Notes: generated by a model from the letters alone, not told the origin. A DNA stretch of 64,000 nucleotides from an uncultured Bdellovibrionales bacterium (GCA_964551325.1 CAZKBU010000008.1:82-64081); one strand, 5' to 3'. Shown: positions 2,646 through 17,934, numbered from the stretch's first letter. Translations and numbers: made by a program.

Positions 2646-2646
2646 A

Positions 2647-3108
2647 TTATCCCCCTGTTCCTGTTTTTCTTGCCCGTTTCATATCCGCAACGCGACCACG
2701 AGGACGCCTGTCCGCCTGAGCGAGATTGGTCAGAGCCGCTACTAAATCCTGCAAGTGCGGTTTCAAGGGGGCCTCTGCATCTTTCGCGGCAAAATACACT
2801 TGGGCCTCAAGTGTCCGGAGAATCCTTTGATATTCTTCAAAAGGAATCTCGCGGAGAGCTTCAATCACCTTGATCTCTTCCAGATAGACAAATGCGTTGT
2901 CCCCGCTCACGAGCATATCAAGAGTCACGCCAAGAGCTTGCGCTATGCGAACAAGCTCACTGGCTGTGGCCTCTCTTTTTTCTAATTCGATCTTGGAAAC
3001 AGAAGATCGCGGCAGTCCAGCCGCTTCATCCAATTCCGCCTGCCTCAGATTTTTTGCCATCCGCAGGGATCGAATTCTGTTTGCAATGTGAGCAGAGTCG
3101 CTTTGCAT
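2647..3108 (-). CDS. XRE-family HTH transcriptional regulator
   Basis: N-terminal IANRIRSLRMAKNLRQAELDEAAGLPRSSVSKIELEKREATASELVRIAQALGVTLDMLV is a classical Cro/C1 HTH. First gene of the 3108..295 minus-strand operon. Confidence 0.8.
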   Translation of the reverse strand: MQSDSAHIANRIRSLRMAKNLRQAELDEAAGLPRSSVSKIELEKREATASELVRIAQALGVTLDMLVSGDNAFVYLEEIKVIEALREIPFEEYQRILRTLEAQVYFAAKDAEAPLKPHLQDLVAALTNLAQADRRPRGRVADMKRARKTGTGG

Positions 3109-3224
3109 GGATGGTGATTAACCATTTCAGCGAATTAAAAGCAACCAAAAATCATTGACCATAACTTTTTGTTTAGTTAAAACCCCTCCCGAACGGGCTA
3201 ATACACGTTTTAAGGGGGTCTTAT

Positions 3225-3431
3225 ATGAAAAATTGTGGATTCGCTAAATTAGCGAATTATTCTAACGATGGAAGTGAGGTGGCTAAGAATCGCCAGCTAT
3301 CCAAGGCGCTGGACATGCTTTCCGAGATATTGGAGATCGAGTTCGGCAGCCTTACCGTTCGATTCTTTGACGGTACGTGGAGCCCGAAAATAGAAATCCA
3401 AAAAAACGTCGTGAAAAAGATTAAGGGATAA
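3225..3431 (+). CDS. small protein, YezD/DUF2292-like
   Basis: 68 aa, AAGGGGG Shine-Dalgarno 7 nt upstream. ...EILEIEFGSLTVRFFDGTWSPKIEIQKNV... follows the YezD pattern (...yGsvtivvqdGkvvqiek...). Confidence 0.45.
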   Translation: MKNCGFAKLANYSNDGSEVAKNRQLSKALDMLSEILEIEFGSLTVRFFDGTWSPKIEIQKNVVKKIKG

Positions 3432-3575
3432 ATTTTTTACAAAAGCTGACCCGATATCGGGAGGCAACTGAAAGCGTGGGATTGACCCTACCTCACACGA
3501 GGATGCTGTCCCGTGAAGCTGGCAAAAAAATCGGAATAGGAACCGATAGCGTGGCTTCCGAAAGGAGAACCCATC

Positions 3576-4148
3576 ATGGGATCTCAAATCACAAACGTCC
3601 AGCAGGACAAGCAATGTACCATCAGTCAAGGAAATCACCCTTGGCTCGACGAGCGCGGATTCCCGCTCTCGGACGAACAACTGAGAAGCGTCTCCCGATC
3701 CTGGGACGAGGCTACATGGAACAAATATCTTGAGTGGCATGAAACTCCACGAGCCGAATCGCTGCTCCGTCCGCAGGAATATGACGAGGCTTGCGAAAAA
3801 CTAGAGGAGTCTGTGTTCGTGGACGCCCAGTCAAGTGCCGATGATGAGCTGAAAACACGGATCGGAATGCTGCTCTCGTCTTTGACGGATCAGCAACGCC
3901 GCGTTCTGGAGCCCATTTTCTGGCAGGGGTGGAGCGAACGGCGTGTCGCCCAGGAATTGAAACTGAACCATAAGTCCGTCCATAGGCTGAAAGAACGCGC
4001 TCTCAATAAAATCAGCAAGTTGCTCAAGGGGGGCCCCAGTTCCCGTATTATGAGAGGGGAAATTTCTCCCCTCCATAAAGAAACGGGGGAAATGGATGGC
4101 AAAAAGGTTCTGGGCCTGGCTGATAGAAAAATTCAAAAGGCTGGGTAA
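3576..4148 (+). CDS. sigma-70 region-4-like HTH protein (no region 2 recognisable)
   Basis: AAGGAG Shine-Dalgarno. LTDQQRRVLEPIFWQGWSERRVAQELKLNHKSVHRLKERALNKISKLL matches sigma70_r4/LuxR-type HTH. The N-terminal 100 aa show no region-2 motifs. Confidence 0.6.
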   Translation: MGSQITNVQQDKQCTISQGNHPWLDERGFPLSDEQLRSVSRSWDEATWNKYLEWHETPRAESLLRPQEYDEACEKLEESVFVDAQSSADDELKTRIGMLLSSLTDQQRRVLEPIFWQGWSERRVAQELKLNHKSVHRLKERALNKISKLLKGGPSSRIMRGEISPLHKETGEMDGKKVLGLADRKIQKAG

Positions 4149-4226
4149 GACCGAAGATAACATTGAAAGCTGGCAACGCCTGGAGTTCAAAGACCGAAAA
4201 CGAATCTCTGCCCACCGGGAGAGTTC

Positions 4227-4508
4227 ATGAAACGCGCGGTCGATAGCCAGGTAAGCCGGTTTCTACCCGCGAGAAGCGCTGAGAAAGAAAAAGACATTCA
4301 AACACTTCATGAGCTGCTGCCGAGCCTTGGCGATGAGGAGATCATCGCGGTCTACTTCCGATTTTGGGAGAGCCTGCTGATCGAGGACATCGCCAACATT
4401 CTCGGCTGCTCATGGCACTACACTGACCAACTGATCGAGCGATCCATCCGGAAACTGCGCCAGGGATTCATTGAACTCCCGGCAAAGCGGCAAGCAATCG
4501 CCGCCTAA
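4227..4508 (+). CDS. sigma-70 region-4-like HTH protein (93 aa)
   Basis: EEIIAVYFRFWESLLIEDIANILGCSWHYTDQLIERSIRKLRQGF follows the sigma70_r4_2 pattern. Confidence 0.5.
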   Translation: MKRAVDSQVSRFLPARSAEKEKDIQTLHELLPSLGDEEIIAVYFRFWESLLIEDIANILGCSWHYTDQLIERSIRKLRQGFIELPAKRQAIAA

Positions 4509-4553
4509 GACACCAATAAGTTTAACGCGCAAAAACGCGAAGGAGTTTTTTCT

Positions 4554-4991
4554 ATGGAAAAACAAGTGATCTCTCATGCCAAAAACGACGAATCGAAAAA
4601 ATACTACCGCTTTCAAGTCTTCCAAGGCGAGGAGGACGGCCAAGGCAAAATCCAGAAAACCAAGAGCGTTGGCATGGCATATCTCAAAGACGGCCAGAAC
4701 ATTTTCACACTCAGGCTCTGGATGTTCTCGTGGGAGCGGTACTACATCCTGCCGAACAAGCAAGATTCCTCGAAGTATCTCGTGATGACGCGGGAACCGA
4801 ACAAGAATCCCGGGGCCAAGAACAAATACTTCTGGAACATCGTTGGAAACGGAGTTGTGAAAACCGCCTTAGGTGTGATCCGTTTGGAGTTCGATCTTCT
4901 GAGCAATCCCGTTTACGTGAATACGCATCCTGAGTCGTCGGCCTTTTCGATGAGCCTGCCTGAGCCCGAGGTGCTGCCAGACGCGGCCTAA
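4554..4991 (+). CDS. hypothetical protein (weak DUF736-like pattern)
   Basis: AAGGAG Shine-Dalgarno, 145 aa. IFTLRLW...YILPNK...KNKYFWNIVGNG...GVIRLEFDLLSNPVYVN loosely follows the DUF736 pattern seen on proteobacterial ICEs and plasmids. Confidence 0.35.
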   Translation: MEKQVISHAKNDESKKYYRFQVFQGEEDGQGKIQKTKSVGMAYLKDGQNIFTLRLWMFSWERYYILPNKQDSSKYLVMTREPNKNPGAKNKYFWNIVGNGVVKTALGVIRLEFDLLSNPVYVNTHPESSAFSMSLPEPEVLPDAA

Positions 4992-5048
4992 AGGCCAAAT
5001 TACTTGCGCGTTCATTTGAGCTTCTTCGTCCCCATTGAAGGAGTGCAA

Positions 5049-5336
5049 ATGAAGCACCAAAAAATCTTTCTTGTCCTAGGACTTTTCGTTCTGAGCCTGA
5101 TGTTCGTCCCCGACCTCGCGCATGCGGGGCTGGAGTCGAGCCTCATGGGAATTAAGACGAAGCTGACAGGAGTGATCCTGCCGCTTCTCTCGGTGATCGG
5201 GATTGCCATTGCGGCGATCTCGTTCTTCACCGGGAATCCAAACGCGAAACAGCACATCGTTTACGCGGTGCTGGGCTGTATGTTTGGATTCGGAGCGCAA
5301 GCCATCGTCGATTTCATCGCGCAAACCGTTCGCTGA
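5049..5336 (+). CDS. virB2: T4SS pilin, VirB2/TrbC family
   Basis: ATG at 5049 follows GAAGGAG. Signal peptide MKHQKIFLVLGLFVLSLMFVPDLAHA, then two hydrophobic helices (GVILPLLSVIGIAIAAISFF and VYAVLGCMFGFGAQAIV). Size and topology are typical of VirB2. Confidence 0.7.
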   Translation: MKHQKIFLVLGLFVLSLMFVPDLAHAGLESSLMGIKTKLTGVILPLLSVIGIAIAAISFFTGNPNAKQHIVYAVLGCMFGFGAQAIVDFIAQTVR

Positions 5337-5345
5337 CGGGAGGCG

Positions 5346-5669
5346 ATGATGGAAGACGATGGACTCCTGACAAGCCGGGTTCCAAGAGCCCTGGAGATGA
5401 AGTCGAAGCTGTTCGGATACGAGTTGCCGGACCTTTTGCTCATCTTTATGAATCTTGCGATCACGAACCTTGTCTTCGGTGCAACGTCCTTCCGCTACCT
5501 CTTGGTATGGGGAACAACGCTATCGCTGGCGTTGTTCCTCTTTTTCGCCAAGCGCGGAAGGCCCGACAACTACCTGCAACACCTGATCGAGCATTTTGTC
5601 CATCCCGCGCACTTCGCTGCCGGGCGCGGCGACCGAATCTATCGGCGCTTTAAGAGGAACCATGAATAA
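5346..5669 (+). CDS. VirB3/TraL-like inner-membrane T4SS protein
   Basis: 107 aa, sits directly between the pilin and VirB4. Two TM segments followed by KRGRPDNYLQHLIEHFVHP, which resembles the TraL motif (KKGRG..WLRDLIYWYMP). Confidence 0.5.
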   Translation: MMEDDGLLTSRVPRALEMKSKLFGYELPDLLLIFMNLAITNLVFGATSFRYLLVWGTTLSLALFLFFAKRGRPDNYLQHLIEHFVHPAHFAAGRGDRIYRRFKRNHE

Positions 5670-8175
5670 GCAAAAAGACACCTCGCTTTGCGAGGAGCTT
5701 CCGTATTGGGATTTCATCGACGGCCCCAAGGCCCATGCCGTACTCCACGACGGCTCGCTCGTCGCGGGCCTGCGCGTTGGTCTGATCGACATTGAGTGTT
5801 TTGACGAGGCGGAAACGAACAACCTCACGATAGGGCTGCGCTCGGCGCTGAACTCCGTTGCGGAGGGCATCTCACTCCAGTTCGTGCTTCGGGTGCGTTC
5901 CGACTTCGCTGACGTGATTGATGCCCACGAGAAAGGCAAGACCGAGAACATTCACCCGCTAGTAAAAAGTATCGCTACTTATCGAGAGAACGCGCTTCGA
6001 TCGGCAATTGAGGCCGGAACACTCTACCGTCCAGAACTCCTGATCTACGTTCGCACGCCTGCGGTCGAGACCAAGAAGGTTAGCATCTTAAAAAAAAAGG
6101 AGCTGTTCTCAGAGGAATCTGCGAAGGCGTACCAGGAAACTCTCGAAGTCTTGGGTCAGAACCTTGAAACGCTGGTTTCTTCGCTTCATGGCCTCGGGTT
6201 CTCCTGCAAAGAACTCACGCGGGAGGAGATGGTCGCGAACGTCTATGAGTTTCTAAACCCTCGGCGCTCGCGCACCGAGCCCGCGCCGATGGTGAAGACA
6301 TTCAATGAACTCGACATTGAGAAGGATGTACTTCAGGAGGTGGAGTGGCTTGCGGCGCAATCCCCTCGGGAACAACTTGTCTTTGGTGATCTTATGATGG
6401 GATTCGAGCAGTTCACGCTCGACGGTTTCTATCACCGGGTTATCACGCTCAAGACTTTACCGGAAATGACTTTCGCGGGCCAGCTCGCGCATTTCCTGCG
6501 CCTGCCGTTCCACTATGACTTGATCCTTTCGCTCGACGTGCCTCCCCAGGCGTCGGAAATGTCGAAGCTCCAGCAAAAACGCAAGATGGCTCACTCGATG
6601 GCCGTAACCTCCGGCGGCAAGGCAAGCGATCTCGAAAGTGAAACGAAGCTCTCTTCCACGGAAGAACTGATCCGCGAGCTTTTGAACACCGGTCAGCGCA
6701 TTTTCGCCGTCCAGATGAGCGTAATCCTGAAGGCCCCGGCAACTCCAGAGGGTACGAAGAAGCTCAACCGCGACGCCCGCGAAGTCCTGGCTCGCTTCCG
6801 CTCACTTCAGGGTGCGGAAGGCTTGGAAGAAAGCGTTGGCGCATGGAAGGTGCTGAAAGGCTCCCTTCCTGCGGCACCTCTGACTTTGGAGCGTGCCCGA
6901 AAGTTGAAGACGAACAACCTGGCCGACTTCCTCCCGGTCTACGGACCTCGGGAGGGTGACAAGAACCCGGTTGTTATCTTCCGAAACCGTTTGAATGGAC
7001 TGGTGAGTTACGACGGCTTCGATGCGGGCCTTGGGAATTACAACATTCTCTGCACCGGTTCATCCGGCGCAGGAAAGAGCTTCTTGAACAATGCCATTTT
7101 GATGCAGGAACTCGCGCGGGGCTTGCGCGTCTTCATTATCGACATCGGCGGCTCCTACAAGAAACTCACTGAAACACTGGGAGGTCAGTACCTCGAGATC
7201 AATCTCTCCGACAATTATCGAATCAACCCGTTCGACATTCCCAATCCGAGAGAGGAACCGAGCAACCAAAAGCTGAAATCCCTACTTGCCTGCGTGGAGA
7301 GCATGGTGAGCGAGGACGAAAAAGCGAAGCTCCCAAAGCTCGACCGCGCCCTCCTGGAACGGGCAATCATCGAGCTTTACAAAAGCCGGAGAGCCAAAGG
7401 TGAGGTGCCCGTTCTGAGCGATCTCGCCCGGTATCTGTCGGCGTTCGAGGAGCCTTCGATGAAGGCCATCTCGAAAATGCTCTATTTGTGGACCGGCGAG
7501 CGCCCGTATGGACGACTCCTCGACGGCCCCGGAAGCCTTCGCACGGATGCACCGATCTGCACCTTCGACCTCAAGGGGCTTTCGGCCTACCCGGACCTTC
7601 AGAGCGTGATGATTTTGATTTTGACGGACTTCATTCTTACGCAGGTCGAAGGCGACCGCACAACGAGAAAGCGAATCATCCTTGATGAAGCCTGGGAGAT
7701 GCTGAAATCGAATGCGGCGGCATCATTCATGGAGTATTGCGCGAGAACGCTTCGTAAAACTGGATCGGGGATCACGTTTATCACTCAAGGCGTGGAAGAA
7801 ATCGTCGCAAGCCCGATCGGGCCAGCGATCCTCAACAACACCGCAACCAAGTTCGTGATGCTCCAGCGGGGCGACTCCGAGGTTCTGCGGGACACCCTGA
7901 AGCTCAACGACCAGGAAATCGCTCTCATCCATTCGCTCGGTCAGAAGAAAGGCGAATTTTCCGAGGGTTTTATGATCGAGGGCGATCATCGCCAAGTCGT
8001 GCGGATTTTCCCTAGCCCGTTTGAATACTGGCTGTCCACCTCGGACTCCCAGGACAACTTGTATCTCTCCGACCTGAGAAACCAGGGGCTGGACCTCGTA
8101 GCGGCCATCGAGAAAGCGGCCGGGGTCTATCCAAATGGCGTGGCTCATGGCCGTGCCGTGAAGGAGGTAGCATGA
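5662..8175 (+). CDS. virB4: T4SS ATPase VirB4/TraC
   Basis: ATG 5662 overlaps the upstream stop. Walker A CTGSSGAGKSF, Walker B RIILDEAWEML. Size (~837 aa) and position after the B3-like gene fit VirB4. Confidence 0.9.
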   Translation: MNKQKDTSLCEELPYWDFIDGPKAHAVLHDGSLVAGLRVGLIDIECFDEAETNNLTIGLRSALNSVAEGISLQFVLRVRSDFADVIDAHEKGKTENIHPLVKSIATYRENALRSAIEAGTLYRPELLIYVRTPAVETKKVSILKKKELFSEESAKAYQETLEVLGQNLETLVSSLHGLGFSCKELTREEMVANVYEFLNPRRSRTEPAPMVKTFNELDIEKDVLQEVEWLAAQSPREQLVFGDLMMGFEQFTLDGFYHRVITLKTLPEMTFAGQLAHFLRLPFHYDLILSLDVPPQASEMSKLQQKRKMAHSMAVTSGGKASDLESETKLSSTEELIRELLNTGQRIFAVQMSVILKAPATPEGTKKLNRDAREVLARFRSLQGAEGLEESVGAWKVLKGSLPAAPLTLERARKLKTNNLADFLPVYGPREGDKNPVVIFRNRLNGLVSYDGFDAGLGNYNILCTGSSGAGKSFLNNAILMQELARGLRVFIIDIGGSYKKLTETLGGQYLEINLSDNYRINPFDIPNPREEPSNQKLKSLLACVESMVSEDEKAKLPKLDRALLERAIIELYKSRRAKGEVPVLSDLARYLSAFEEPSMKAISKMLYLWTGERPYGRLLDGPGSLRTDAPICTFDLKGLSAYPDLQSVMILILTDFILTQVEGDRTTRKRIILDEAWEMLKSNAAASFMEYCARTLRKTGSGITFITQGVEEIVASPIGPAILNNTATKFVMLQRGDSEVLRDTLKLNDQEIALIHSLGQKKGEFSEGFMIEGDHRQVVRIFPSPFEYWLSTSDSQDNLYLSDLRNQGLDLVAAIEKAAGVYPNGVAHGRAVKEVA

Positions 8176-8879
8176 AACGATTCAAGAAATGGATTGTGAT
8201 GGGAATGGTGGGTTTGTGCCTCACCATTCCTAAGCCCGCCAAGGCCGACTTGTTCGGCGGTGACGTGGTGATCCTGACTCAAATTCTTGCGAACGCCATT
8301 CAGCAGCTTGTTCAACTGAGACAAATTCTCTCGACTGGATCAGACACGCTCACTCTCATGCGCGACATCAATCGAGGGATCAGGGACGGACTCGCGGCCC
8401 TTCAGATAATTAACCCGAGATTCAATCCGGGAATTTACGGGAATCTCGAAACCGCGGATCGAGTCTTGAGCATTATCAATGACCTGTACGGGAGAATCCC
8501 CGAGACAACGGAAGCGAGGCTTCAACAGGCGCAGGACCAGTCGGCCTCTGAAAGCATCGCCATGAACGGACCGATGTTTCGCTTTGCTGACGAGGCGGAT
8601 GAGGAGAGCCGGAGAATTTTCGCCCATTCACAGAATGTAAACCCGCAGGGGGCGGCGAAACTCACGGCGCAATCCTTGGCAATTTTGATCGGTGTCACAA
8701 CTCAAGTGCTTCGATCCAATTCGATGATCTTAAAAGCAATGGGCGAAAACATGGCCCTCCAAAACAGAAAAGAAAAGCTCCAGTCGCTGCAATTCAAAAC
8801 CCAATACGAAGGCATCTCCGGCGCGCTTGGCTCTCTCCCTAGGGACACAAAGCTGAACACGCTGAGATCGGGAGAGTGA
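8172..8879 (+). CDS. secreted T4SS component, VirB5/TrbJ-like
   Basis: ATGA overlap with virB4. Signal peptide ...PKPAKA, then DLFGGDVVILTQILANAIQQLVQLRQIL, which resembles the TrbJ N-terminal helix. Helical, about 210 aa mature. Confidence 0.45.
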   Translation: MKRFKKWIVMGMVGLCLTIPKPAKADLFGGDVVILTQILANAIQQLVQLRQILSTGSDTLTLMRDINRGIRDGLAALQIINPRFNPGIYGNLETADRVLSIINDLYGRIPETTEARLQQAQDQSASESIAMNGPMFRFADEADEESRRIFAHSQNVNPQGAAKLTAQSLAILIGVTTQVLRSNSMILKAMGENMALQNRKEKLQSLQFKTQYEGISGALGSLPRDTKLNTLRSGE

Positions 8880-8882
8880 CCT

Positions 8883-9770
8883 ATGCCGGACTTTGGACTT
8901 TTAGGTTCACTCATGGTGGACCTTCATCGGGAGTTCGTGCGGATTTTCTACTTGATGCTTCCCGTATTCTTCTGCTTGTCGATTGCGGTGACTTGGTTCC
9001 GCAATCCCGGAAATCTTGAGTTCTTGGATGTTTTGAAAAGAGCAGTGATTTCAACTCTTCTCCTTGCAGCATTTCCCGAGATCAGCCAGGCAATTATTTT
9101 CATTGCCGATGGTATTGCGGAAAGAGTCGATCAGATGCAGGGACTTGACGTATTCCTGCGAATGGCAAAAGAGAAGGCGCTAAGTTTCACCTTCGTGAAA
9201 AACACACTTCTTCTACAGTTTCCAGACCTCATCATCGCACTCCTTTCTTTCGTGAGTTACCTGATCCTCTATATCGCGCGATACCTCACCATTGCGATGT
9301 ACCACTTTTATTGGATCTTCTACATGGTGTCCGCTCCACTCCTGCTGCTGTTCAACTTATTTCCGTCCACGAGCCAAATTACGGCGAATTTGTTTCGGGG
9401 AATGGTGGAAATTGCTAGCTGGAAGATCGTTTGGGCGATTCTTGGTGCGATGCTGACGGCGCTTTCGTTCGGGGACAGTTACCGCGCCCAAGATGACTAC
9501 CTGATTCTGATGGTGATGAATTTCGTCATCGCCATTTCGATGTTGAAAACGCCTTCCGTCGTGTCCTCTTTGGTTGGAGCGGGACTCAACTCTATGGCTC
9601 CGAGTGTTGGCGCGGATGCAGCGATGACGATGGCGGCGGTTCCGGCGAAGGCCGCAATGGTCTACACCAAAGGGAAAGTAATTGCGGGTGGTGCCAAGAA
9701 TTTCGCTGGAACCCGAATTGCGAATCATCGGGCTGAGAAAGAAAAACGCGCAGCTATGTATCGCTATTAA
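8883..9770 (+). CDS. polytopic membrane T4SS component, VirB6/TrbL-like
   Basis: 295 aa with at least 5 hydrophobic helices. Sits in the canonical position after the B5-like gene. Confidence 0.6.
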   Translation: MPDFGLLGSLMVDLHREFVRIFYLMLPVFFCLSIAVTWFRNPGNLEFLDVLKRAVISTLLLAAFPEISQAIIFIADGIAERVDQMQGLDVFLRMAKEKALSFTFVKNTLLLQFPDLIIALLSFVSYLILYIARYLTIAMYHFYWIFYMVSAPLLLLFNLFPSTSQITANLFRGMVEIASWKIVWAILGAMLTALSFGDSYRAQDDYLILMVMNFVIAISMLKTPSVVSSLVGAGLNSMAPSVGADAAMTMAAVPAKAAMVYTKGKVIAGGAKNFAGTRIANHRAEKEKRAAMYRY

Positions 9771-9781
9771 GGAACTAAAAA

Positions 9782-10369
9782 ATGAACCAAACAATTCAGC
9801 TAAAGCTCAAGAAACTTCCCAAAGCACTTGGGGAACTCGCTCACTCGAATCAGTTTTTGAAAATGTCGGCATTTTCCTCCTATGGAATTTGCGTTCTTTT
9901 GATCGGAATTATTTTCTATCAGGCCGGAAAGCCTCCAATGGTCCTGCCGCTCGCTCCGGACGCTTCCCTCTATCAGAGCACGGAACAACCAAAGCCGGAA
10001 ATTGAGGTACGGCAAGCAATCAGGGAGTATTTAGAAAGGCGTTACAAATGGGAGCCAAAAACCATTTTGAAGCAACTGGCGGCGGCGCAGGTATTTATTC
10101 TTCCAAGTACGAAAAGGACGTTTGAGGTTTCCACCGCTGGCGTGGCGAAATTTTCCCAGGAAAAACTTGTTTCCCAGCGGGTTTACGCGGACCAGATTCA
10201 AGTGGATACCACCAAAAAGCTCGTCATGATCCGAGGTGATCGCGTGACGGAAATCCAAGGAATGAAAGCAGCCGGTGATTTGCGGCTTGAATTATCTTTC
10301 GAGTACGGCCCAAGGACCGCGCAAAACCCCTGGGGAGTGTACGTCCTAAAAGAACGCGAAGAACTCTGA
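9782..10369 (+). CDS. bitopic T4SS component, VirB8/TrbF-like
   Basis: N-terminal TM (SAFSSYGICVLLIGIIFY) plus a ~140-aa periplasmic domain ending in ...AQNPWGVYVLK, like the NPLG-type motif of VirB8. Confidence 0.55.
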   Translation: MNQTIQLKLKKLPKALGELAHSNQFLKMSAFSSYGICVLLIGIIFYQAGKPPMVLPLAPDASLYQSTEQPKPEIEVRQAIREYLERRYKWEPKTILKQLAAAQVFILPSTKRTFEVSTAGVAKFSQEKLVSQRVYADQIQVDTTKKLVMIRGDRVTEIQGMKAAGDLRLELSFEYGPRTAQNPWGVYVLKEREEL

Positions 10370-10415
10370 AAAACCAAATGAGCCACTAAAAAACCCTCTA
10401 TCCAAAGGAGGGCCC

Positions 10416-11126
10416 ATGAATCCTTTTCTCTGGATTCTGTTGCTCGCATTTTCCCTTCCCCATACTGCATGGGGAAGGGTCCGAAAAATTGAAGTTGGCC
10501 AAGATCAAATTGTCACCGTCAGAACCGCCATTGGAATCGCCACGATCATTCAGGTGCCGGATCGTCCGAATAGCATCGTGGTTGGCGACCAAGCCGGATT
10601 CAAGGTCGAATATCTCGACCAGGCGATCACGATAAAACCTCTTCACGGGGGCGCGAAGAGCAACCTGTATGTCTATACGGATTATCGGCGTTTCAATATC
10701 CAGCTTGTTACCGGCGGCGAAGCATCCGCCGATTATGTCGTCTATCTTGAAAACCCAAAAGAGAAACCACAGAAATCTTCTCTCGTCTGGACGACTTTCA
10801 AAAATCATCTGAACAACGACGGACTTAAATTTGAAGTGAAGCGCCTGGGCCGAACCAAAGATGGGCTGCTCATCGTCGAATTTGCAATTCTGTCGGAGAA
10901 AAAAGAGAAATTGAAACCGGATTGGATTTGGTTAACCCAAAGCGGAGTCACCCGTCCGATTCACAATCTGATTCTTTCGGGCCAAGAGCTGCGCCCGAAC
11001 CAAGGCATCCAGGGAATGATGCAGATTCTGAAAGGCGATGTCTCCGACACCGATCCTTTGCAAATTGAATTGAGACGGCAAAAGACCTCCTATCTCACAA
11101 TTCCAAAGGTAACAGCATGGAAGTAA
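10416..11126 (+). CDS. virB9: T4SS outer-membrane core component, VirB9/TrbG-like
   Basis: AAAGGAGG Shine-Dalgarno and a signal peptide. IEVGQDQIVTVRTAIGIATIIQVPDRPNSIVVGDQAGFKVEYLDQAITIKP...NLYVYTDYRRFNIQL follows the VirB9/CagX N-domain pattern. Confidence 0.7.
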   Translation: MNPFLWILLLAFSLPHTAWGRVRKIEVGQDQIVTVRTAIGIATIIQVPDRPNSIVVGDQAGFKVEYLDQAITIKPLHGGAKSNLYVYTDYRRFNIQLVTGGEASADYVVYLENPKEKPQKSSLVWTTFKNHLNNDGLKFEVKRLGRTKDGLLIVEFAILSEKKEKLKPDWIWLTQSGVTRPIHNLILSGQELRPNQGIQGMMQILKGDVSDTDPLQIELRRQKTSYLTIPKVTAWK

Positions 11127-12094
11127 CTGAAAAAATGCCTTTTAAAGAAAGGCTTTCGGGCCTCTTTTTCAAAGAGAAAGCGTATTTCCTCGCTCGCAGG
11201 GAGATTAAATGGAAGAGCATTCAGAAATGCGCGATTGCGGCAGTCGCTGTAGGAGTCATAGTTGTACTTTTCCTTCCGAATCCTGAGCAACCGCAGGGAT
11301 CATTTCACGAACGAGCTGAAGCAGGTTCAATTTCCCGGTCAAGGTCTATAGAAGGTGATCCCACTCAGGAAGCTATTGCACAAATGCAAGGCGGAGGATC
11401 AGGACGTTATGTCCCTGGATCGCTCGATCATCTATACGTCAACAATAGTGGTTCCGGCCCGAGTTCGGCTGCGCCCGATCGCAGTAGTTCGATGGTTCTC
11501 ACGAGAGGCGGCGGCGACACAAAGACGCAAATTCCTCCTGGCTCCCGTTTAGCTGTTCGACTTTATGAAAAAGCTGTTGTGGCAAGCCAGGGAATGCCCA
11601 TCATTGGCATGGTGACCCGCGACTATGTGCATGAAGATGCCGTAGCCGTCCCCCAGGGGTCAAAGCTATTTGGCGAGATTTCCTTTGATGATGGCGGTGA
11701 CCGGGCACGAATTGATTGGCGTGTCATTCAGCTTCCCGATCGAAGAGAGCGTCCGATTTCCGCGCTGGGAATCGGGGCGGACGGCCAAGTGGGTGTGGCC
11801 GGAAAAGTTCATTCCGAGGCGCTAAAAAACACGATTGGACAGACTCTTACCCGATTCATCGGCGCTTACGCCGAGGGCTCCATGCAGCGCGGACCAATGG
11901 GATCAAACCAAGGTGGTAGCGACAACGGATTGAGAAACGCGGTGGCCGAAACCGCCAAGGACCGCGCCGAAGCGTGGGCCGATGATCTGAAAAAAGAAAA
12001 CCGCTGGATTGAGGTTTCAAACGGCACGGAATTTTACGCCGTTCTCACGCAAAGCTTTGCATTCAGGGACCCAGGAGCAACTTATGGCAGATAA
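11117..12094 (+). CDS. virB10: T4SS core component, VirB10/TrbI-like
   Basis: 10-nt overlap with the B9-like gene. N-terminal TM, low-complexity linker, and a C-terminal domain IPPGSRLAVRLYEKAVVASQGMPIIGMVTRD...VPQGSKLFGE...GQVGVAGKVHSE typical of TrbI/VirB10. Confidence 0.7.
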   Translation: MEVTEKMPFKERLSGLFFKEKAYFLARREIKWKSIQKCAIAAVAVGVIVVLFLPNPEQPQGSFHERAEAGSISRSRSIEGDPTQEAIAQMQGGGSGRYVPGSLDHLYVNNSGSGPSSAAPDRSSSMVLTRGGGDTKTQIPPGSRLAVRLYEKAVVASQGMPIIGMVTRDYVHEDAVAVPQGSKLFGEISFDDGGDRARIDWRVIQLPDRRERPISALGIGADGQVGVAGKVHSEALKNTIGQTLTRFIGAYAEGSMQRGPMGSNQGGSDNGLRNAVAETAKDRAEAWADDLKKENRWIEVSNGTEFYAVLTQSFAFRDPGATYGR

Positions 12095-13694
12095 AAACGA
12101 AAAGGCCCAAGCTAGCGACCACACGCTGATTTGGGGAGCCGGAATATTTTTCGGCGTCATGATTCTGGATAAGCTGTGTAACCTTTTTTTGAAATGGATC
12201 AAATCACCTCAAAACCAGATGTTCTTTATCGGAGCGATCATCGCGGGGCTTACCGCCCTCTTTTATTGGGCGGCGAGAAAACGGGAAATCGCCCTTGCGA
12301 GGAGAAAGCAAGCAGCGGCGGTTCTTGGTCCCGCCGAAGGCTCCGTGTTTTGCGGGGTAACTGATAAGCGCAAGCCTGTTCACATCAAACCAAAACAGCG
12401 GGCCATGCACACCCAAGTCATTGGCACCACGAACGCTGGTAAAACGGAGTCTGTGATTCTTCCCTGGGCCATTCAGGATATTGAAAAAGGGCGCGGTCTT
12501 GTCTTAATTGATGGAAAAGCGGATCGAAGCTTACTTGATAAGCTCTGGGCGTATGCGGTGAAACACAAGCGCGAAAAGGATTTTCGCTTGTTTTCCCTGA
12601 GCCACATTGAGGAATCGCATCAGTTTAATCCTCTCGTGGGCGGAACTCCCGAAGAAGTTTCAGAGCGGGTCTTTAATTCTTTCGAGTTTGAAAATGCCTA
12701 TTACCGAAGCGTCCAGTTTGAGATTTTCTCACAGGTTTTGCGAATCTTCGCGGCTGCCAATGAAATTCCAACTTTTTTGAAGATTCATCAGGCAATCACT
12801 GAACCCAATAAACTGGTGGCTCTCAGCCGGGAAACGGGAGACGACTCGCTCAAACAATGGGCGGCCTACTACCGGGATCTTCCGCCGAGTGAACGCACCC
12901 AGCGCATCAGCGGCTTGACCGCGGCCTTGAGCCATTTTGCCTTTGGAAAAACCGCGAGTCTCTTTAATACCGAAGCACCGACCATAACGCTTGACGAGAC
13001 ACTGGGAAAAAATCTGATCGTATATTTCCAGCTTCCGGTGCTTCTCTCCCCCTTTCTAGGAAAGGCATCGGGAAAAATGATTCTACAGTGCTTACAAAGC
13101 GCCGTAGCCAATCGCCACCGTGGAACTAACCGGCAGCACAAGTTTTTCTCCGTCTTTCTGGATGATTTTTCCGAGTACCTGTATCCGGGGTTCGTTTCGG
13201 TTCTGAACAAATCAAGAAGCGCCAATGTCGGCGTCGTGTTCGCGCACCAGGCTCTCGGGGATATTAAAACGATGGGCGATGCCATTGCCAATTCCATTCT
13301 GACAAACGCAAATTTGAAAGTTTTCATGCGCGGCAACGATCCTGAGTCGGCGGAATACTTCGCCAAGGTCATTGGAACGATGAAGGGGCAAAAATTCACT
13401 GAAAGAACAAAAAGAAGCCTTTGGAACAACCAAACGACGGGAGACGGGTCAATCCGCGAAGTCGAAGAGTTCATCATCCACCCGAATAAATTCAAAAGTG
13501 AACTTGGTGTCGGCGAGGCCGTCATGGTCATTCCCCACGAGGCCGGAAGTACCGCCATCAATATCAAATTCCAAAAATTCGACGATCTTGAGGCAAAAGA
13601 ACTTGAGCTGATTCACAAAGAGGCACCGAAGGGTCTTGTCCTTCGGGAGCTGAAAGTTCCTGAGAACAAGGAACCAAAAATGGAGGCCGCATGA
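12084..13694 (+). CDS. virD4: type IV coupling protein VirD4/TraG family
   Basis: ATG 12084 follows AGGAG and overlaps the B10 stop. Two N-terminal TM helices, Walker A VIGTTNAGKTES, Walker B FFSVFLDDFSEY, and VVFAHQALGD. Confidence 0.85.
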   Translation: MADKNEKAQASDHTLIWGAGIFFGVMILDKLCNLFLKWIKSPQNQMFFIGAIIAGLTALFYWAARKREIALARRKQAAAVLGPAEGSVFCGVTDKRKPVHIKPKQRAMHTQVIGTTNAGKTESVILPWAIQDIEKGRGLVLIDGKADRSLLDKLWAYAVKHKREKDFRLFSLSHIEESHQFNPLVGGTPEEVSERVFNSFEFENAYYRSVQFEIFSQVLRIFAAANEIPTFLKIHQAITEPNKLVALSRETGDDSLKQWAAYYRDLPPSERTQRISGLTAALSHFAFGKTASLFNTEAPTITLDETLGKNLIVYFQLPVLLSPFLGKASGKMILQCLQSAVANRHRGTNRQHKFFSVFLDDFSEYLYPGFVSVLNKSRSANVGVVFAHQALGDIKTMGDAIANSILTNANLKVFMRGNDPESAEYFAKVIGTMKGQKFTERTKRSLWNNQTTGDGSIREVEEFIIHPNKFKSELGVGEAVMVIPHEAGSTAINIKFQKFDDLEAKELELIHKEAPKGLVLRELKVPENKEPKMEAA

Positions 13695-14137
13695 AAAAAG
13701 AAACGGCGAACTTCTATTGTTTTTCGATGATTCATTTGCTTGCTTTCGCTTTAGCGATGGCCGGATGCGCCACACAGAACAAAAGCGCGGGATTGGGTGG
13801 AATGATCGGCGTCGGAACGGGAGCCGCTTTGGGCGGAATCGCTGACCCTGGAAAAAATGGAGAGTATCGCACGAGGAATGTCATCGTGGGCGCAACTCTT
13901 GGCGGGATGACCGGGCTCGTTGCGGGATCAGTCATCCACGACGAGATGGAGTCACAAAAGAAGGAGGCATTTTTGAAAGGACGCGCATCGGCTTCCCCAG
14001 CCCAGGCGGGAGCCATGCCGTCCTTGAAAAATCCTAAAGTGGAATCACGGTGGATTGAGGGCCGGGTGGTTGGAAACCGATTTATCGAAGGGCATTTTGA
14101 ATACGTCATCATTGAACCAGCAAAGTGGGACAACTGA
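13691..14137 (+). CDS. glycine-zipper lipoprotein (possible VirB7 analogue)
   Basis: ATGA overlap with virD4. Lipobox LAMAGC. Gly-zipper GLGGMIGVGTGAALGGI...GATLGGMTGLVAGSV. Confidence 0.6.
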   Translation: MKKETANFYCFSMIHLLAFALAMAGCATQNKSAGLGGMIGVGTGAALGGIADPGKNGEYRTRNVIVGATLGGMTGLVAGSVIHDEMESQKKEAFLKGRASASPAQAGAMPSLKNPKVESRWIEGRVVGNRFIEGHFEYVIIEPAKWDN

Positions 14138-14874
14138 TGCGTCCCTTGAAAGTGCCCGAAGCGGAGATTCGCTATGCGGCTAAAACAGGATTTCTGACGA
14201 AAAGAATCTGGGAAGATTTTTTTGCGGGCGATATTCCGGGCTGGAAGCGGCGTCGCTTATGGAGATGCTTTGCAGTGAGAGGCTTCTTCCGGCCACACCC
14301 ATCATCACTTGCGAAGCAAGTCCTAATACTAAACCGAAAATCGCCAATGGTTTTTAAACTTGTAGGCGATGAAATTTCCTCACCGCCATTCGTTTCGCAA
14401 CTGGAACACGACGAGACTGTTGCGCGGATTCTTTTGGACCTGAAAAAGGCGGGAGTCATCCAGTCCTTTACAACCGAGATGGAACTGAAAAGGGAAATCA
14501 AAGAAAAACAGCGTTACGATGGGTCCGTTAAAATGAAATATCCAGACGCGATTATTGAAGTCAGCGGACCTATGACCAAAATAAAAGTTGCCCTGGAACT
14601 TGAACTGACCCGCAAAGACCCGAAGCGATACAGGCAATGCCTGAACACTTACGCTGCCCGAAGGGAAGTAAGCCAGGTTGTTTTCATTGCGAGAGCCAAT
14701 GCCGTCTTCGATTCCCTTCGCAGGGCGATGCGGGAAACCTACTATCCTGATTGGGAGCGTCCTATCGGCTTTTCTCCTCTTGAGGAATGGAAGCGGAATC
14801 CCGCCGAAGCGGCAATCTGCTTTAGCGAAACGCAAACGTCATTGAGATCAATCCACAAAAAAATGAACTCTTGA
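14137..14874 (+). CDS. Replic_Relax (replication-relaxation, PD-(D/E)xK-like) family protein
   Basis: ATG 14137 shares its A with the upstream TGA (a GTG at 14125 is also possible). LEHDETVARILLDL..., then KYPDAIIEV...KVALELELTRK (a PD...ExK nuclease-type motif). The overall pattern recalls Pfam Replic_Relax. Confidence 0.5.
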   Translation: MRPLKVPEAEIRYAAKTGFLTKRIWEDFFAGDIPGWKRRRLWRCFAVRGFFRPHPSSLAKQVLILNRKSPMVFKLVGDEISSPPFVSQLEHDETVARILLDLKKAGVIQSFTTEMELKREIKEKQRYDGSVKMKYPDAIIEVSGPMTKIKVALELELTRKDPKRYRQCLNTYAARREVSQVVFIARANAVFDSLRRAMRETYYPDWERPIGFSPLEEWKRNPAEAAICFSETQTSLRSIHKKMNS

Positions 14875-14966
14875 GTTTCGGTTCTCAAAGTGTTCACTGC
14901 GGACTAAAACTCCGAAGCAGCTCATCATACCGACAATCCGGAATTGAATGAATTTCTAACAAGTTA

Positions 14967-15076
14967 GCCGCCGCCGCCTCACCAAGCCAGTCCCCTAATC
15001 GCAAAAGACCACTCCCCCCCAACATTAGTTGAGTGGAAGTGGTCTTTTGCTGGTGACTGACAAGGATCGGCGGCGG
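14967..15076. promoter_or_regulatory. candidate oriT: long imperfect inverted repeat
   Basis: Perfect 13-bp stem GCAAAAGACCACT (15001-15013) / AGTGGTCTTTTGC (15038-15050). It is extended by CAGTC (14988-14992) / GACTG (15055-15059) and CCGCCGCC (14968-14975) / GGCGGCGG (15069-15076). Lies in the only sizeable intergenic gap of the transfer region. Confidence 0.35.
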
Positions 15077-15078
15077 TG

Positions 15079-15528
15079 ATGTATGTGAATGGGGAAATTA
15101 TGGATAAGAATAATAATATTTTTAATACGGGAACGGGATCGGGTGCGGGAACAGAAGACGGGAACGAAAGCCATCGGTTGACGATTACGAAAGCGGCGGA
15201 GCAAGCTCTCGTATCGGCTGTTGACCGGATCAACGATGGCTTTCAAGGGGGAAAGGTCAATCGGAACCAAGTCGCAATCTGGGCGCTCTCGCGCTTTGGC
15301 GAAACCCTTGGTCCCGACGAAATCAGGGAAATCCGCGCGGAGTTCTTGGACGAGTTTTCGGCCTTGGATGCCATCCTGCGCCGAGCCAAGAACACCGGAA
15401 AAATGCCTCCTGAATTAAAAGCCTTTTTGCAAAGACAGATGGGGCTAGATGATTCACCGAAGAAAAAAAGCAAAAAGGGCTTGCAGGATAATGTAATCAA
15501 TGATTACATTGAAGATAACAAGGTCTGA
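15079..15528 (+). CDS. hypothetical protein (possible relaxosome or regulatory accessory)
   Basis: 149-aa ORF with no recognisable motif. The start is ambiguous (GTG 15076, ATG 15079, ATG 15100). Co-directional with the downstream XRE and recombinase genes. Confidence 0.45.
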   Translation: MYVNGEIMDKNNNIFNTGTGSGAGTEDGNESHRLTITKAAEQALVSAVDRINDGFQGGKVNRNQVAIWALSRFGETLGPDEIREIRAEFLDEFSALDAILRRAKNTGKMPPELKAFLQRQMGLDDSPKKKSKKGLQDNVINDYIEDNKV

Positions 15529-15538
15529 GTGAAAGTTG

Positions 15539-15760
15539 ATGGAAGCGGAAGAGATCAAACGGATCAGAGACAAACTCGGCATGAGCAGGGACGGACTCGC
15601 GCAACTGATGTGTCTTGGCTATCGAAGCCTCATGCACATTGAGCTTGGAACGAGGAACCCGAGCAAACTGACTATCCGTCTCCTCCGCTATATCGACTCA
15701 CTCCCTAAGACGAAAGCCCTGGCCTTTATTGAGGAACTGAAACGACATGAACCTAAATAA
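15539..15760 (+). CDS. XRE-type HTH protein
   Basis: IKRIRDKLGMSRDGLAQLMCLGYRSLMHIELGTRNPSKLTIRLLRYI is a Cro/C1-like HTH. 73 aa. Confidence 0.7.
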   Translation: MEAEEIKRIRDKLGMSRDGLAQLMCLGYRSLMHIELGTRNPSKLTIRLLRYIDSLPKTKALAFIEELKRHEPK

Positions 15761-15989
15761 GTTCGTCAAAATACTTAGGAGCTTTATGGCTCGCAGAGAA
15801 AGTCGCAGCGGCAAAAGAGCCGCCATCGCCAATCTGCGCGTTCAGTTGATCCCGGTCCGCAAAGAAAATTTCGATGTCACGACTCACCGACAAGTGATCG
15901 GGCATTTATTAAGTATGATGGTCCTCAACCTGCACAAGCGGGGTCGGCCAAAGAAGAACGAGGAAGGAGAACTCAGCTATGCGATATAA
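15747..15989 (+). CDS. small basic protein (possible recombination directionality factor or regulator)
   Basis: 80 aa. Overlaps the XRE gene by 14 nt and the recombinase gene by 11 nt. Contains the AT-hook-like KRGRPKK. Confidence 0.4.
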   Translation: MNLNKFVKILRSFMARRESRSGKRAAIANLRVQLIPVRKENFDVTTHRQVIGHLLSMMVLNLHKRGRPKKNEEGELSYAI

Positions 15990-17739
15990 GGTTGGAGTTT
16001 ACGTCCGTGTCAGCACCGACGAACAAGCCCTCCGCTCGGAGGGCTCGCTTGAGACGCAAAAACACAGAATCCTGGCCGAAGTAGAGAACCGCAACAGGCG
16101 CGAGAGCGGATGGGGCAAGGTTTTTGATGTTTATGAAGATGACGGTTATTCGGCGGCTGGATACCGTCCCGCCTATGAGCGCCTGATGGCGGACATTCGC
16201 AAAGGGAAAGTGAATTTGATTTTCGTGGCCGACTATTTCCGGTTTTGCCGCCACTTGCTTGATTATCTGAGTCTTGCGGAGGATTTGAAAAAGATTGGCG
16301 CAAAGATTCTCTCCGTCAAAGACAACTTTGATACCGAGACCGCGATGGGCCAGTCCATGATCCGCAACTATATCAATATGGCGCAGACAGAGCGGGAACT
16401 GACGGCTGAAAGGGTTGCCACCAACTTCCATGCCCGTGCTCTTCGCGGACTTAGGAATGGCGGGCGCATCCTTTATGGATTTGACCGGAACGACAAGGAC
16501 TTGGCCCGCCTAATGATCAATGAAAGCGAGGCACGGGAGATTCGGGAAGTTTTCCGCGTCTACTTGGAGGAAGGAACCTGCGGCAAGGCAACGGATCGTC
16601 TCAACCAGAAGGGCCTTCTCAGAAAGACCAAAAGCTACAAGGACGACAGCATCGTAAAGGCCGAGCCGTGGACCCGCTCTGCGGTTCACTACGTCTTAAG
16701 AAACCCGGCATACGCTGGCCTCCGTGAGATCAACAGGAAGAACAAGGACCAGGATCAGACGACCTTGAAGGAATCAGCGCAATACAAAGTTGTTCCCGCA
16801 TCGTGGCCCGCCATTGTTGACCAAACGACCTGGAATACGACGCAGGAAAGTCTCAACTTCGCGCTGTCCAAGGCGCGCGAACGGATGAAAGGAAAAACGA
16901 AAAGAGATTTTCTCCTCTCGGGCATCCTCAAATGCGCGGAGTGCGGCGGCTCCCTTATGGGGGCAACGGGACACGGAACAAAGTCCGTCCACAGATACTA
17001 CGTCCACCGCCATGTAAAAGGGAGAGCAATCGAATGCTCGATGGACTGGATTCCCGCCGACGACTTGGAGACGGCGATCCTTGAAAAATTGGACCTCGTT
17101 TTAACAGACGAAGGGTACCTCAACAATCTTGAGGTCACGATGGAAAAGATTGCAACAGACCGCCAATCCGATCTGCGACTGGAAAAGGAAACCCTGGAAT
17201 CAGGGTACTCGAAAATCGAAGCGGAAATCCGAAAGACAATCCAAGTCCAGGCGCAATGCGCTGATGTGACAGTGGATGATGTTTTCCGGGATCAGCTCCG
17301 AACCCTTGGCGACGAGAAACGAATCATGAAAGTCCGACTGGACGAAATTGAGAACCAGCTTAGAGATTTCATCGCGCCGAAGGAAGCGCGGAACGCGATC
17401 AAAATTAACGTGACCGTCTTTAAGAAGGCATACACCAAAGCCAAAAACGTCGTTCGCAAGCGTCTGCTTGGAACCGTTTTTGATTCTCTCACTTTAGGCA
17501 ACTGTGAACTGAATCTGTATTTCAATCAGACCGTCGGTTCAGCGGAAGCCGTCCACTATGCACAAAACAAAAAGTCCTCGGGGGTTTCCTCCGAGGACTC
17601 TCTTCTCGTTGCAAAAATCCTACAATTTAAAAGACCAGTTCGTGAGGCTTCCGCCCCCGGTCTGACCGGAGCCCTTTCCCGGGATGAAAGGGTCATTTTA
17701 CGTGAAGTTGTTGGAATTGGTCGGGGTGGCGGGATTTGA
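15979..17739 (+). CDS. large serine recombinase
   Basis: AAGGAG Shine-Dalgarno. N-terminal resolvase catalytic motif YKVGVYVRVSTDEQ, recombinase domain, Cys-containing LKCAECGGSLMG...H zinc-ribbon-like segment, and a long coiled-coil region. 586 aa. The stop TGA at 17737-17739 lies inside tRNA-Pro(CGG). Confidence 0.9.
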   Translation: MRYKVGVYVRVSTDEQALRSEGSLETQKHRILAEVENRNRRESGWGKVFDVYEDDGYSAAGYRPAYERLMADIRKGKVNLIFVADYFRFCRHLLDYLSLAEDLKKIGAKILSVKDNFDTETAMGQSMIRNYINMAQTERELTAERVATNFHARALRGLRNGGRILYGFDRNDKDLARLMINESEAREIREVFRVYLEEGTCGKATDRLNQKGLLRKTKSYKDDSIVKAEPWTRSAVHYVLRNPAYAGLREINRKNKDQDQTTLKESAQYKVVPASWPAIVDQTTWNTTQESLNFALSKARERMKGKTKRDFLLSGILKCAECGGSLMGATGHGTKSVHRYYVHRHVKGRAIECSMDWIPADDLETAILEKLDLVLTDEGYLNNLEVTMEKIATDRQSDLRLEKETLESGYSKIEAEIRKTIQVQAQCADVTVDDVFRDQLRTLGDEKRIMKVRLDEIENQLRDFIAPKEARNAIKINVTVFKKAYTKAKNVVRKRLLGTVFDSLTLGNCELNLYFNQTVGSAEAVHYAQNKKSSGVSSEDSLLVAKILQFKRPVREASAPGLTGALSRDERVILREVVGIGRGGGI

Positions 17740-17795
17740 ACCCACGACCTCTTCGTCCCGAACGAAGCGCGCTAGCCAGGCTGCGCCACACCCCG
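17718..17795 (-). tRNA. tRNA-Pro (anticodon CGG)
   Basis: The reverse complement reads CGGGGTGTGGCGCAGCCTGGCTAGCGCGCTTCGTTCGGGACGAAGAGGTCGTGGGTTCAAATCCCGCCACCCCGACCA. 7-bp acceptor stem, anticodon stem CTTCG/CGAAG with loop TTCGGGA, GGTTCAAATCC T-loop, encoded CCA. Confidence 0.9.
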
Positions 17796-17880
17796 ACGAC
17801 CAATGAAACGGGAAACCATCGGTTACCAAAAACCGCCCGAATTTTGAACGGATTTGAAAGAAACCGTAGTCGCTCGCACG

Positions 17881-17934
17881 ATACGGAATTCAGTACTGAA
17901 TACGGTATACGGTATTCAGTATACCGTATTCAGT
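17881..17934. repeat. array of four 14-mers ATAC[CG]G[TA]ATTCAGT (orientations +,-,+,+)
   Basis: Copies are atacggaattcagt (17881-94), actgaatacggtat (17895-908, inverted), atacggtattcagt (17907-20) and ataccgtattcagt (17921-34). This gives a perfect 15-bp inverted repeat, 17895-17909 / 17920-17934. Confidence 0.85.

Follow-up and report, generated by a model that had tools for sequence, protein, structure and literature searches.

Relaxases of the MOB_C family are PD-(D/E)XK enzymes that carry a winged helix–turn–helix (HTH) at the N terminus, and they are found on conjugative plasmids and on integrative and conjugative elements (ICEs) (PMC12857230). Their pairing with a VirB-type type IV secretion system (T4SS) is already known, as in the Salmonella plasmid pSE20-C72-2-2, which is typed MOBC/MPF_T. 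Among mating-pair formation (MPF) systems, VirB11 is found in only 19% of those outside MPF_T (PMC4027160), the F system works without it (PMC12857230), and VirB1 is non-essential (PMC4027160, PMC10018362). MPF_G systems have VirB2-like pilins and TraL/TraE/TraK/TraB/TraV-like cores (PMC4027160; PMC10018362). A literature search found no paper on conjugative elements of Bdellovibrionota. Here, we analysed a 64,000-nt stretch of DNA from an uncultured Bdellovibrionales bacterium (GCA_964551325.1 CAZKBU010000008.1:82-64081; the window), in which an earlier, sequence-only reading had placed at 5049–14874 a VirB/D4-like operon of eleven co-directional genes with no VirB11, VirB1 or MOB relaxase. 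The locus most likely belongs to an ICE that is self-sufficient, builds a minimal mating apparatus and encodes a MOB_C-like relaxase; the family to which it belongs is widespread in Bdellovibrionota and apparently undescribed.

The twelve-gene block and its channel proteins

The core of the locus consists of 12 genes, all on the + strand, encoding in order a 145-aa protein, a VirB2 pilin, a TraL/VirB3-like protein, a TraC-type VirB4, a 235-aa protein, VirB6, VirB8, VirB9, VirB10, a type IV coupling protein (T4CP), a lipoprotein and a 245-aa protein. The open reading frame (ORF) list and the translations reproduced the eleven co-directional genes and their junctions, to which the 145-aa gene (4554–4991), upstream of the pilin gene, is an addition. 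The TraL/VirB3-like gene (5349–5669) overlaps the VirB4 gene (5662–8175) by 8 nt, the VirB4 gene meets 8172–8879 in an ATGA overlap, 10416–11126 overlaps 11117–12094, and the T4CP gene (12084–13694) is followed by 13691–14137 and then by 14137–14874 with a 1-nt TGATG overlap. The Walker strings reported earlier were also present, namely GSSGAGKS and ILDEAWEM in VirB4 and GTTNAGKT and FLDDFSEY in the T4CP. The operon runs on past 14874 with genes for a 150-aa protein, an HTH protein, an 80-aa protein and a serine recombinase.

A scan of GTDB species representatives yielded 78 related loci (L numbers below), nearly all of them in metagenome-assembled genomes (MAGs) of Bdellovibrionales, Bacteriovoracaceae, Oligoflexia or Halobacteriovoraceae. 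In tblastn mapping, the order of the 12-gene block was invariant across loci and the ORFs were intact, and this identical order in 78 independent loci places the gene set far beyond chance. VirB4 has hundreds of close metagenome homologues, the named ones being mostly from Bdellovibrionota and one being labelled Pseudomonadota. A reading of the locus as a decayed remnant was rejected, since all core ORFs are intact and in order across the 78 loci.

The VirB4 ATPase (5662–8175) was identified as TraC-type by TIGR02746, Pfam and phmmer. It matched the Pfam TraG P-loop (2e-37) and TraC_F_IV (8.6e-15) models and, over its full length, the F-type TraC model TIGR02746 (E 4.6e-101), with 339 bits against an equivalog cutoff of 567, and it is thus, as far as profile scores tell, a relative of F-type TraC and not a member. 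The VirB4_CagE model gave 208 bits, the TrbE and VirB4 equivalog models 26–70 bits, and the MPF_G-type PFL_4706 model only 69 bits; judged by these model scores, the protein would lie outside the T clade. With phmmer, it was linked to F TraC (8.5e-29), R388 TrwK (7.9e-12) and Thermus TraC (2.7e-68), and in a plasmid collection its best matches were Myxococcus and Thermus proteins with 27–28% identity, followed by F-type TraC with 22–25%.

The pilin (5049–5336; 95 aa in identical contigs) is of the VirB2/TrbC type, matching Pfam TrbC above the cutoff (8e-10). The 106-aa small membrane protein encoded at 5349–5669 is TraL/VirB3-like: weak Pfam TraL and DUF3487 matches occurred in 5–8 members of its family, the family profile aligned with F TraL in hhalign (62%, E 7.4e-5), and phmmer with F TraL as the query recovered 10 members at 2e-4. 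The 295-aa polytopic inner-membrane protein (8883–9770) is VirB6/TrbL-like at the family level, Pfam TrbL matching 14 scanned sequences (attributed to the 27 scanned members of the family; best E 1.1e-5) and the window copy giving 0.091. The 195-aa protein (9782–10369), with an N-terminal transmembrane helix and an NTF2-like periplasmic domain, is a VirB8/TraE homologue. Its AlphaFold2 model had a pLDDT of 84.9, and a Foldseek search of the PDB returned 48 matches with E<=1e-3, all 48 from the VirB8 family with a TM-score of about 0.7, among them R388 TrwG, pKM101 TraE and the A. tumefaciens and Brucella proteins; many homologues also matched Pfam PF05309 TraE. The sequence-only reading had based its B3, B6 and B8 calls on topology, position and short motifs, and all three hold, VirB8 by predicted fold in the structural check proposed for 9782–10369, and VirB6 and TraL/VirB3 by family-level profile matches. 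Profile searches of PDB sequences with the 235-, 195- and 295-aa families returned nothing.

The VirB9-like outer-membrane core protein (10416–11126) matched Pfam CagX (1e-10), TIGR02781 VirB9 (1.3e-10) and R388 TrwF (hhalign 89%), and the VirB10/TrbI-like core protein (11117–12094) matched Pfam TrbI (4e-15) and, in phmmer, R388 TrwE (7.9e-8). The T4CP (VirD4/TraD; 12084–13694) matched Pfam TraG-D_C (9.7e-12) and T4SS-DNA_transf, its best model being TIGR03743 SXT_TraD (1e-33). The lipoprotein (13691–14137), which has a lipobox-like ...LAMAGC sequence and a glycine zipper (Gly-zipper 1.4e-4), is possibly a VirB7/TraV-like outer-membrane anchor; Gly-zipper_YMGG matched 26 scanned sequences (attributed to the 27 of its family; best 3.2e-7), with faint TraV matches in two members and TraT matches in three. 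When each core family was aligned with R388, F and Thermus proteins by hhalign, matches were limited to TraL, VirB9, VirB10 and MobC. The 235-aa protein (8172–8879), conserved in 77 loci, has an N-terminal hydrophobic leader and stands in the VirB5 position, which is what suggests a VirB5 role; it had no match in Pfam, NCBIfam or PDB sequences, and hhalign with R388 TrwJ gave 2.5%. The 145-aa protein, encoded directly 5′ of the pilin gene in 73 loci, had no match in Pfam or NCBIfam, and hhalign against the R388, F and Thermus reference proteins was empty. Homologues of VirB2, VirB6, VirB8, VirB9 and VirB10 in VirB order, one of the marks of MPF_T, were found together with TraL and TraE homologues, one of the marks of MPF_F, every signal of the latter pair being weak.

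Absences were assessed within about 10 kb of each family copy. For this, all ORFs encoding 60 aa or more were taken from the related loci and from the full window, 4609 in total, and searched with phmmer (E<=1e-3). No match was obtained among these with R388 TrwD or the Thermus VirB11-like ATPase for VirB11, with R388 TrwN, F Orf169 or Thermus SLT for a lytic transglycosylase, or with TrwC or F TraI for a MOB_F relaxase, and the F plasmid proteins TraF, TraH, TraN, TraU, TraW, TrbC and TraG likewise found nothing in any locus or in the window. Furthermore, Pfam T2SSE matched none of the scanned element ORFs, Pfam scans of the larger element ORFs showed no relaxase, HUH families other than those of TrwC and F TraI not having been searched with references, and no transfer gene appeared among the Pfam-scanned representatives of flanking clusters recurring in at least five loci. 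The gene set is compact, as the earlier reading had it. The absence of VirB11 and VirB1 noted in the window was borne out there and in its 78 relatives and is thus a stable family trait, not the decay of one copy, and the composition fits neither canonical MPF_T nor canonical MPF_F, as had been remarked. What did not stand is the view of the missing VirB11 as an anomaly, because VirB4 is TraC-type and VirB11 is rare outside MPF_T (PMC4027160) and dispensable for F (PMC12857230).

This gene set also raises the question of whether the system is a ninth MPF class in its own right, a minimal diderm T4SS lineage found mainly in Bdellovibrionota that is no offshoot of MPF_F or MPF_T. We regard this as possible but doubtful: the 27–28% identity of VirB4 to the nearest plasmid VirB4s, its score under the F-type TraC cutoff, the gene set unlike either MPF_F (no TraF/H/N/U/W/TrbC) or MPF_T (no VirB1/VirB11), the two core genes without detectable homologues outside the family and the lack of any description in the literature searched all argue for a separate class, whereas the full-length match of VirB4 to the F-type TraC model and the placement of all identified components in known T4SS families argue against one, and classifiers may simply assign the system to MPF_T or MPF_F. 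Equally tentative is the wider proposition that a distinct MPF lineage is spreading in Bdellovibrionota that would be the smallest known diderm conjugative T4SS. Such a lineage would manage with some ten structural genes and two ATPases, without VirB11, VirB1 or assembly factors of the F type, and would be linked to a divergent MOB_C relaxase and a tRNA-targeting serine recombinase.

The MobC homologue and the hairpin beyond it

The 245-aa protein (14137–14874, + strand), whose gene is kept at every locus reaching that far, is a MOB_C-like putative relaxase with an N-terminal winged-helix-like region and a PD-(D/E)XK nuclease domain. It matched the NCBIfam model NF041423, 'MobC family replication-relaxation protein' (4.5e-5, 22.9 bits), as did 23 of 27 homologues (best 2.5e-8); this is the model that names mobC of CloDF13-type plasmids; in PLSDB these are typed MOB_C. 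Since mobC is not intact in the original CloDF13 record, the comparison used a modern CloDF13-like plasmid. In hhalign, a 55-sequence alignment of the 245-aa family matched three MobC proteins (CloDF13-type, Salmonella and Vibrio) with a probability of 98.4% and E 5.5e-15 over 157 columns, pairing the H, K-x-PD and E-x-E-x-x-x-K-x-x-RY motifs of the two families, and phmmer with MobC found 17 members of the 245-aa family (best 2.6e-6); identity between the families is about 18%. Residues H91, D92, E114, K134, D137, E154, E156 and K160 are invariant in the family. The AlphaFold2 model (pLDDT 93.8) mostly retrieved restriction-endonuclease folds in Foldseek, namely FokI, YaeQ, SfsA, EcoT38I, PaqCI, SdaI and BamHI, with E-values that were weak and consistent, and the helix and strand order of the model suggests the winged helix.

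In the CloDF13-like, Salmonella and Vibrio plasmids, the coupling-protein gene is followed by mobC at once or after no more than two small genes, and here one lipoprotein gene separates the T4CP gene from the 245-aa gene. MobC homology, the PD-(D/E)XK fold and proximity to the T4CP gene together indicate that the element encodes a MOB-family relaxase candidate, contrary to the claim that none was present. By profile comparison, the 245-aa protein is a distant homologue of CloDF13 MobC, the MOB_C prototype, and a non-HUH relaxase candidate predicted to nick DNA; pAD1 TraX is another relaxase of the MOB_C family. The label Replic_Relax given to it earlier survives in part, in the match to the MobC-family model NF041423; the Pfam Replic_Relax model itself did not match, even at E<=1, across 27 and 37 relatives, distant ones drawn from the 1310 matches of a profile search of 1.8 billion proteins included. 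In addition, tblastn with the 245-aa protein and a distant relative found no match in plasmids. Such divergence explains why the candidate was overlooked by Pfam and by curated cutoffs.

Nested inverted repeats are present in the 200-bp gap 3′ of the 245-aa gene and include a conserved imperfect hairpin at 14968–15076, with inner arms at 15001–15023 and 15028–15050. More than 50 loci each had a single match to the inner hairpin, on the + strand and invariably just 3′ of the MobC-like gene. An alignment of 42 sequences revealed a 13-bp stem with compensatory changes at 8 of 13 pairs and almost no broken pairs, together with an invariant GACC...C-rich/GGAAG core. Rfam had no match to the hairpin and yielded only two tRNAs in the window. 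The most economical reading makes the hairpin a candidate origin of transfer (oriT); RNA elements and single-strand replication signals or origins are alternatives. The conserved 150-aa protein encoded 3′ of it (15076–15528, + strand; 31 loci; no Pfam match) is possibly a relaxosome accessory factor, as its position suggests. The genes that follow (15536–15989, + strand), encoding a small HTH protein (15536–15760; Pfam HTH_3 6.6e-6) and an 80-aa protein (15747–15989), co-occur with the recombinase in related loci.

Integration at tRNA genes and variation among relatives

The large serine recombinase (integrase) gene (15979–17739, + strand; Pfam Resolvase 2.6e-25, Recombinase 1.4e-18, Zn_ribbon_recom 2.5e-12) forms the right edge of the element, and the last 22 nt of its ORF lie inside a tRNA-Pro(CGG) gene (17718–17795, − strand; ARAGORN, Rfam), the integration target and right junction. 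A second tRNA-Pro gene and then RNase PH follow beyond it. The first 18000 nt or so have a GC content of about 0.50 and the rest of the window one of about 0.58, with a rise to about 0.59–0.62 to the right of the tRNA-Pro gene, and this step, together with the recombinase running into the tRNA gene, indicates that an integrated element has its right part in the window. Positions 1 to 17717, approximately, are probably the right-hand part of a low-GC ICE in a Bdellovibrionota chromosome. The recombinase/tRNA arrangement is repeated in nine relatives (L003, L012, L032, L041, L053, L054, L056, L058 and L074), where the tRNA is that for Ala, His, Phe or Met; with the window included, the recombinase ORF stops 22–181 nt inside the tRNA gene. 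Since the ORF crosses the junction between element and host, the C-terminus of the recombinase would change on excision. It seems unusual for serine integrases to target tRNA genes and to vary in the tRNA chosen. The interval separating the two tRNA-Pro genes contains an AT-rich palindromic repeat, AGTACTGAATACGGTATACGGTATTCAGTATACCGTATTCAGT (17880–17940).

An identical contig, L084, reaches 2.7 kb to the left of the window and is still low in GC (0.39–0.49), which puts the left end of the element out of view. No attL copy of the tRNA end was found in the window, in L084 or in the available left flanks of the nine related loci, and the host side of the junction had no exact match in JGI metagenomes. 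The unreached left end bears on whether the element is self-sufficient: the host or another element might supply factors in trans, for example a peptidoglycan hydrolase or an ATPase resembling VirB11, or the true relaxase might be encoded further left and the 245-aa protein have another role. The distant similarity to MobC and the presence of VirB1 and VirB11 in MPF_T systems carrying MobC point the same way. We nevertheless consider such dependence improbable, because VirB11, SLT and a MOB_F relaxase were found within about 10 kb in none of the 78 loci, flanking clusters in at least five loci add no recurrent conjugation gene, the MobC-like gene is universally kept near the T4CP gene, and described systems dispense with VirB11 (F, PMC12857230; its rarity outside MPF_T, PMC4027160) and with VirB1 (PMC4027160, PMC10018362).

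Outside the core, related loci differ. The right end has two alternatives, either the serine recombinase module or a tyrosine integrase with an HTH_17 gene. Cargo on the left side includes a major facilitator superfamily transporter in the window and, in L003, genes for metal efflux. About 36–39 loci, roughly half, have a two-component flank some 6 kb upstream of VirB4, with genes for a histidine kinase, a sigma-54-dependent response regulator of the NtrC type and an SBP_bac_5 solute-binding protein (for example, L046:5086-6447, L054:6845-8239 and L056:1000-2556); the subfamily of the window has genes for an XRE HTH protein, a 375-aa protein and sigma-70 region-4 proteins in its place. Two or three diverged copies were present in single MAGs (L019/L026/L027 in JAWXAY01, L036/L039/L046 in JBFWTE01 and L024/L025 in DIUR01). 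Insertions of 3–5 kb occur between the VirB8 and VirB9 genes in L060, L061, L062, L067 and L069, at the equivalent of 10370–10415 of the window; in L061, genes for an AcrB-type RND pump and an outer-membrane efflux protein lie 3′ of the VirB8 gene, and the VirB9 gene lies past the locus end. This gap looks like a cargo hot spot inside the operon. Two loci, L007 in a Fimbriimonadaceae MAG and L028 in a 'Streptomyces griseus' MAG, come from Armatimonadota and Actinomycetota bins and have VirB4s with 73–85% identity, reflecting either mis-binning or transfer beyond Bdellovibrionota.

The T4SS of a predator might serve not conjugation but effector delivery, bacterial killing, or the uptake or release of DNA. 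The hosts are Bdellovibrionota, and the ComB-type DNA-uptake system also has no VirB11, both of which count in favour of such a function. The coupling protein, relaxase homologue, recombinase at a tRNA gene, variable cargo and multiple copies, however, form the signature of an ICE, and effector-like or immunity genes do not recur with the core, so that we consider a non-conjugative role highly improbable.

Upstream of the operon, an XRE-type HTH regulator (2647–3108, − strand; Pfam HTH_3 6.8e-14) is paired with the 375-aa membrane protein (1518–2645, − strand), which has one predicted transmembrane helix, four GGG(N/H)DP repeats and no Pfam match. The two genes are co-transcribed and conserved in eight loci, and they are a regulatory/accessory module of the subfamily of the window. 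The sigma-70 region-4 domain protein (3576–4148, + strand; Pfam Sigma70_r4 3.5e-7), encoded in about 20 loci and upstream of the operon every time, is likely to be a transcription factor for the transfer operon, as its domain and position suggest. Promoter and terminator scans gave signals no better than chance.

Proposed transfer pathway and relation to known systems

By analogy with MOB_C plasmids and with the VirB and F systems, transfer of the element may be pictured as follows. Excision at the 3′ end of tRNA-Pro would be carried out by the large serine recombinase, and the 245-aa MOB_C-like PD-(D/E)XK protein would nick oriT, probably the hairpin just 3′ of its own gene. The coupling protein encoded nearby would pass the DNA to a channel made of VirB3/TraL, VirB4/TraC, VirB6, VirB8/TraE, VirB9, VirB10 and the lipoprotein, with a pilin of the VirB2 type, and two ATPases alone would power the whole machine. 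Several points weigh against a self-sufficient ICE of this kind. The left end lies beyond the window and was not reached even with L084, and the genes further left are unseen; nearly all copies are MAG or metagenome contigs, from which we only infer excision, nicking and transfer; the 245-aa protein scored far under the curated NF041423 cutoff (22.9 vs 200 bits) and escaped Pfam Replic_Relax; the hairpin may act in RNA or in single-strand replication instead of as oriT; and the 235-aa and 145-aa core proteins have no recognisable homologues outside the family.

If the proposed reading of a self-sufficient ICE is true, no ICE family of Bdellovibrio-like predators would have been characterised before this one. 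The elements would offer a naturally minimal double-membrane T4SS in which one can ask which parts are indispensable, and they raise the question of what energises a VirB-like channel and a VirB2 pilus when VirB11 is missing. The relaxase, with no Pfam match and a score far below the NCBIfam cutoff, could escape profile-based pipelines, which may then record such elements as lacking a relaxase or as non-mobilizable. Some copies carry efflux and metal-resistance cargo.

Among described systems, the MOB_C/MPF_T enterobacterial plasmids, such as Salmonella pSE20-C72-2-2, and the mobB-mobC genes of CloDF13 have the coupling-protein gene followed by mobC, as here, and the plasmid MobC and the 245-aa family are homologous relaxases. 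Plasmids of the pSE20-C72-2-2 type also share with this locus an operon in VirB order (B2, B3/B4, B5, B6, B8, B9, B10). However, MOB_C/MPF_T plasmids have VirB1, VirB11 and a B3-fused T-type VirB4, whereas this locus has neither VirB1 nor VirB11 and its VirB4 is TraC-type; furthermore, the element is integrated and has a serine recombinase, and its MobC-like protein, with about 18% identity to MobC, falls below curated cutoffs.

F and SXT/R391 (MPF_F) resemble the present system in having no VirB11, a TraC-type VirB4, TraL- and TraE-like proteins and, here, an SXT_TraD-like coupling protein. In contrast to MPF_F, TraF, TraH, TraN, TraU, TraW, TrbC and TraG were not detected here, the pilin matches TrbC/VirB2 and not TraA, VirB9 and VirB10 are closer to T-type proteins, the MPF genes number about 10 compared with about 20 in F, and the relaxase is MOB_C-like instead of MOB_F or MOB_H. 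The closest VirB4s in the plasmid collection, those of Thermus and Myxococcus plasmids, are 27–28% identical, and the Thermus operon starts with pilin, small protein and TraC genes, the same as here. The Thermus locus has a VirB11-like ATPase, SLT and much larger unidentified proteins and no annotated VirB8, VirB9 or VirB10, however, and its detectable kinship with the present locus is limited to VirB4 and the T4CP. ICEclc and ICEHin1056 (MPF_G) are tRNA-associated ICEs, as is this element, but MPF_G systems exceed 20 genes, with products such as TraU/W/F-like proteins, thioredoxins and a PFL_4706-type VirB4, unlike the system described here.

Judged by these likenesses, the apparatus is a stripped-down mosaic, F-like in its VirB4, TraL and T4CP, T-like in its pilin, VirB6, VirB9 and VirB10, and VirB-like in its gene order. 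What sets the family apart from known systems is that it combines F-like and T-like parts with a divergent MOB_C relaxase, has none of the F-specific assembly proteins and, in the members seen here that bear the large serine recombinase, is integrated at tRNA genes.

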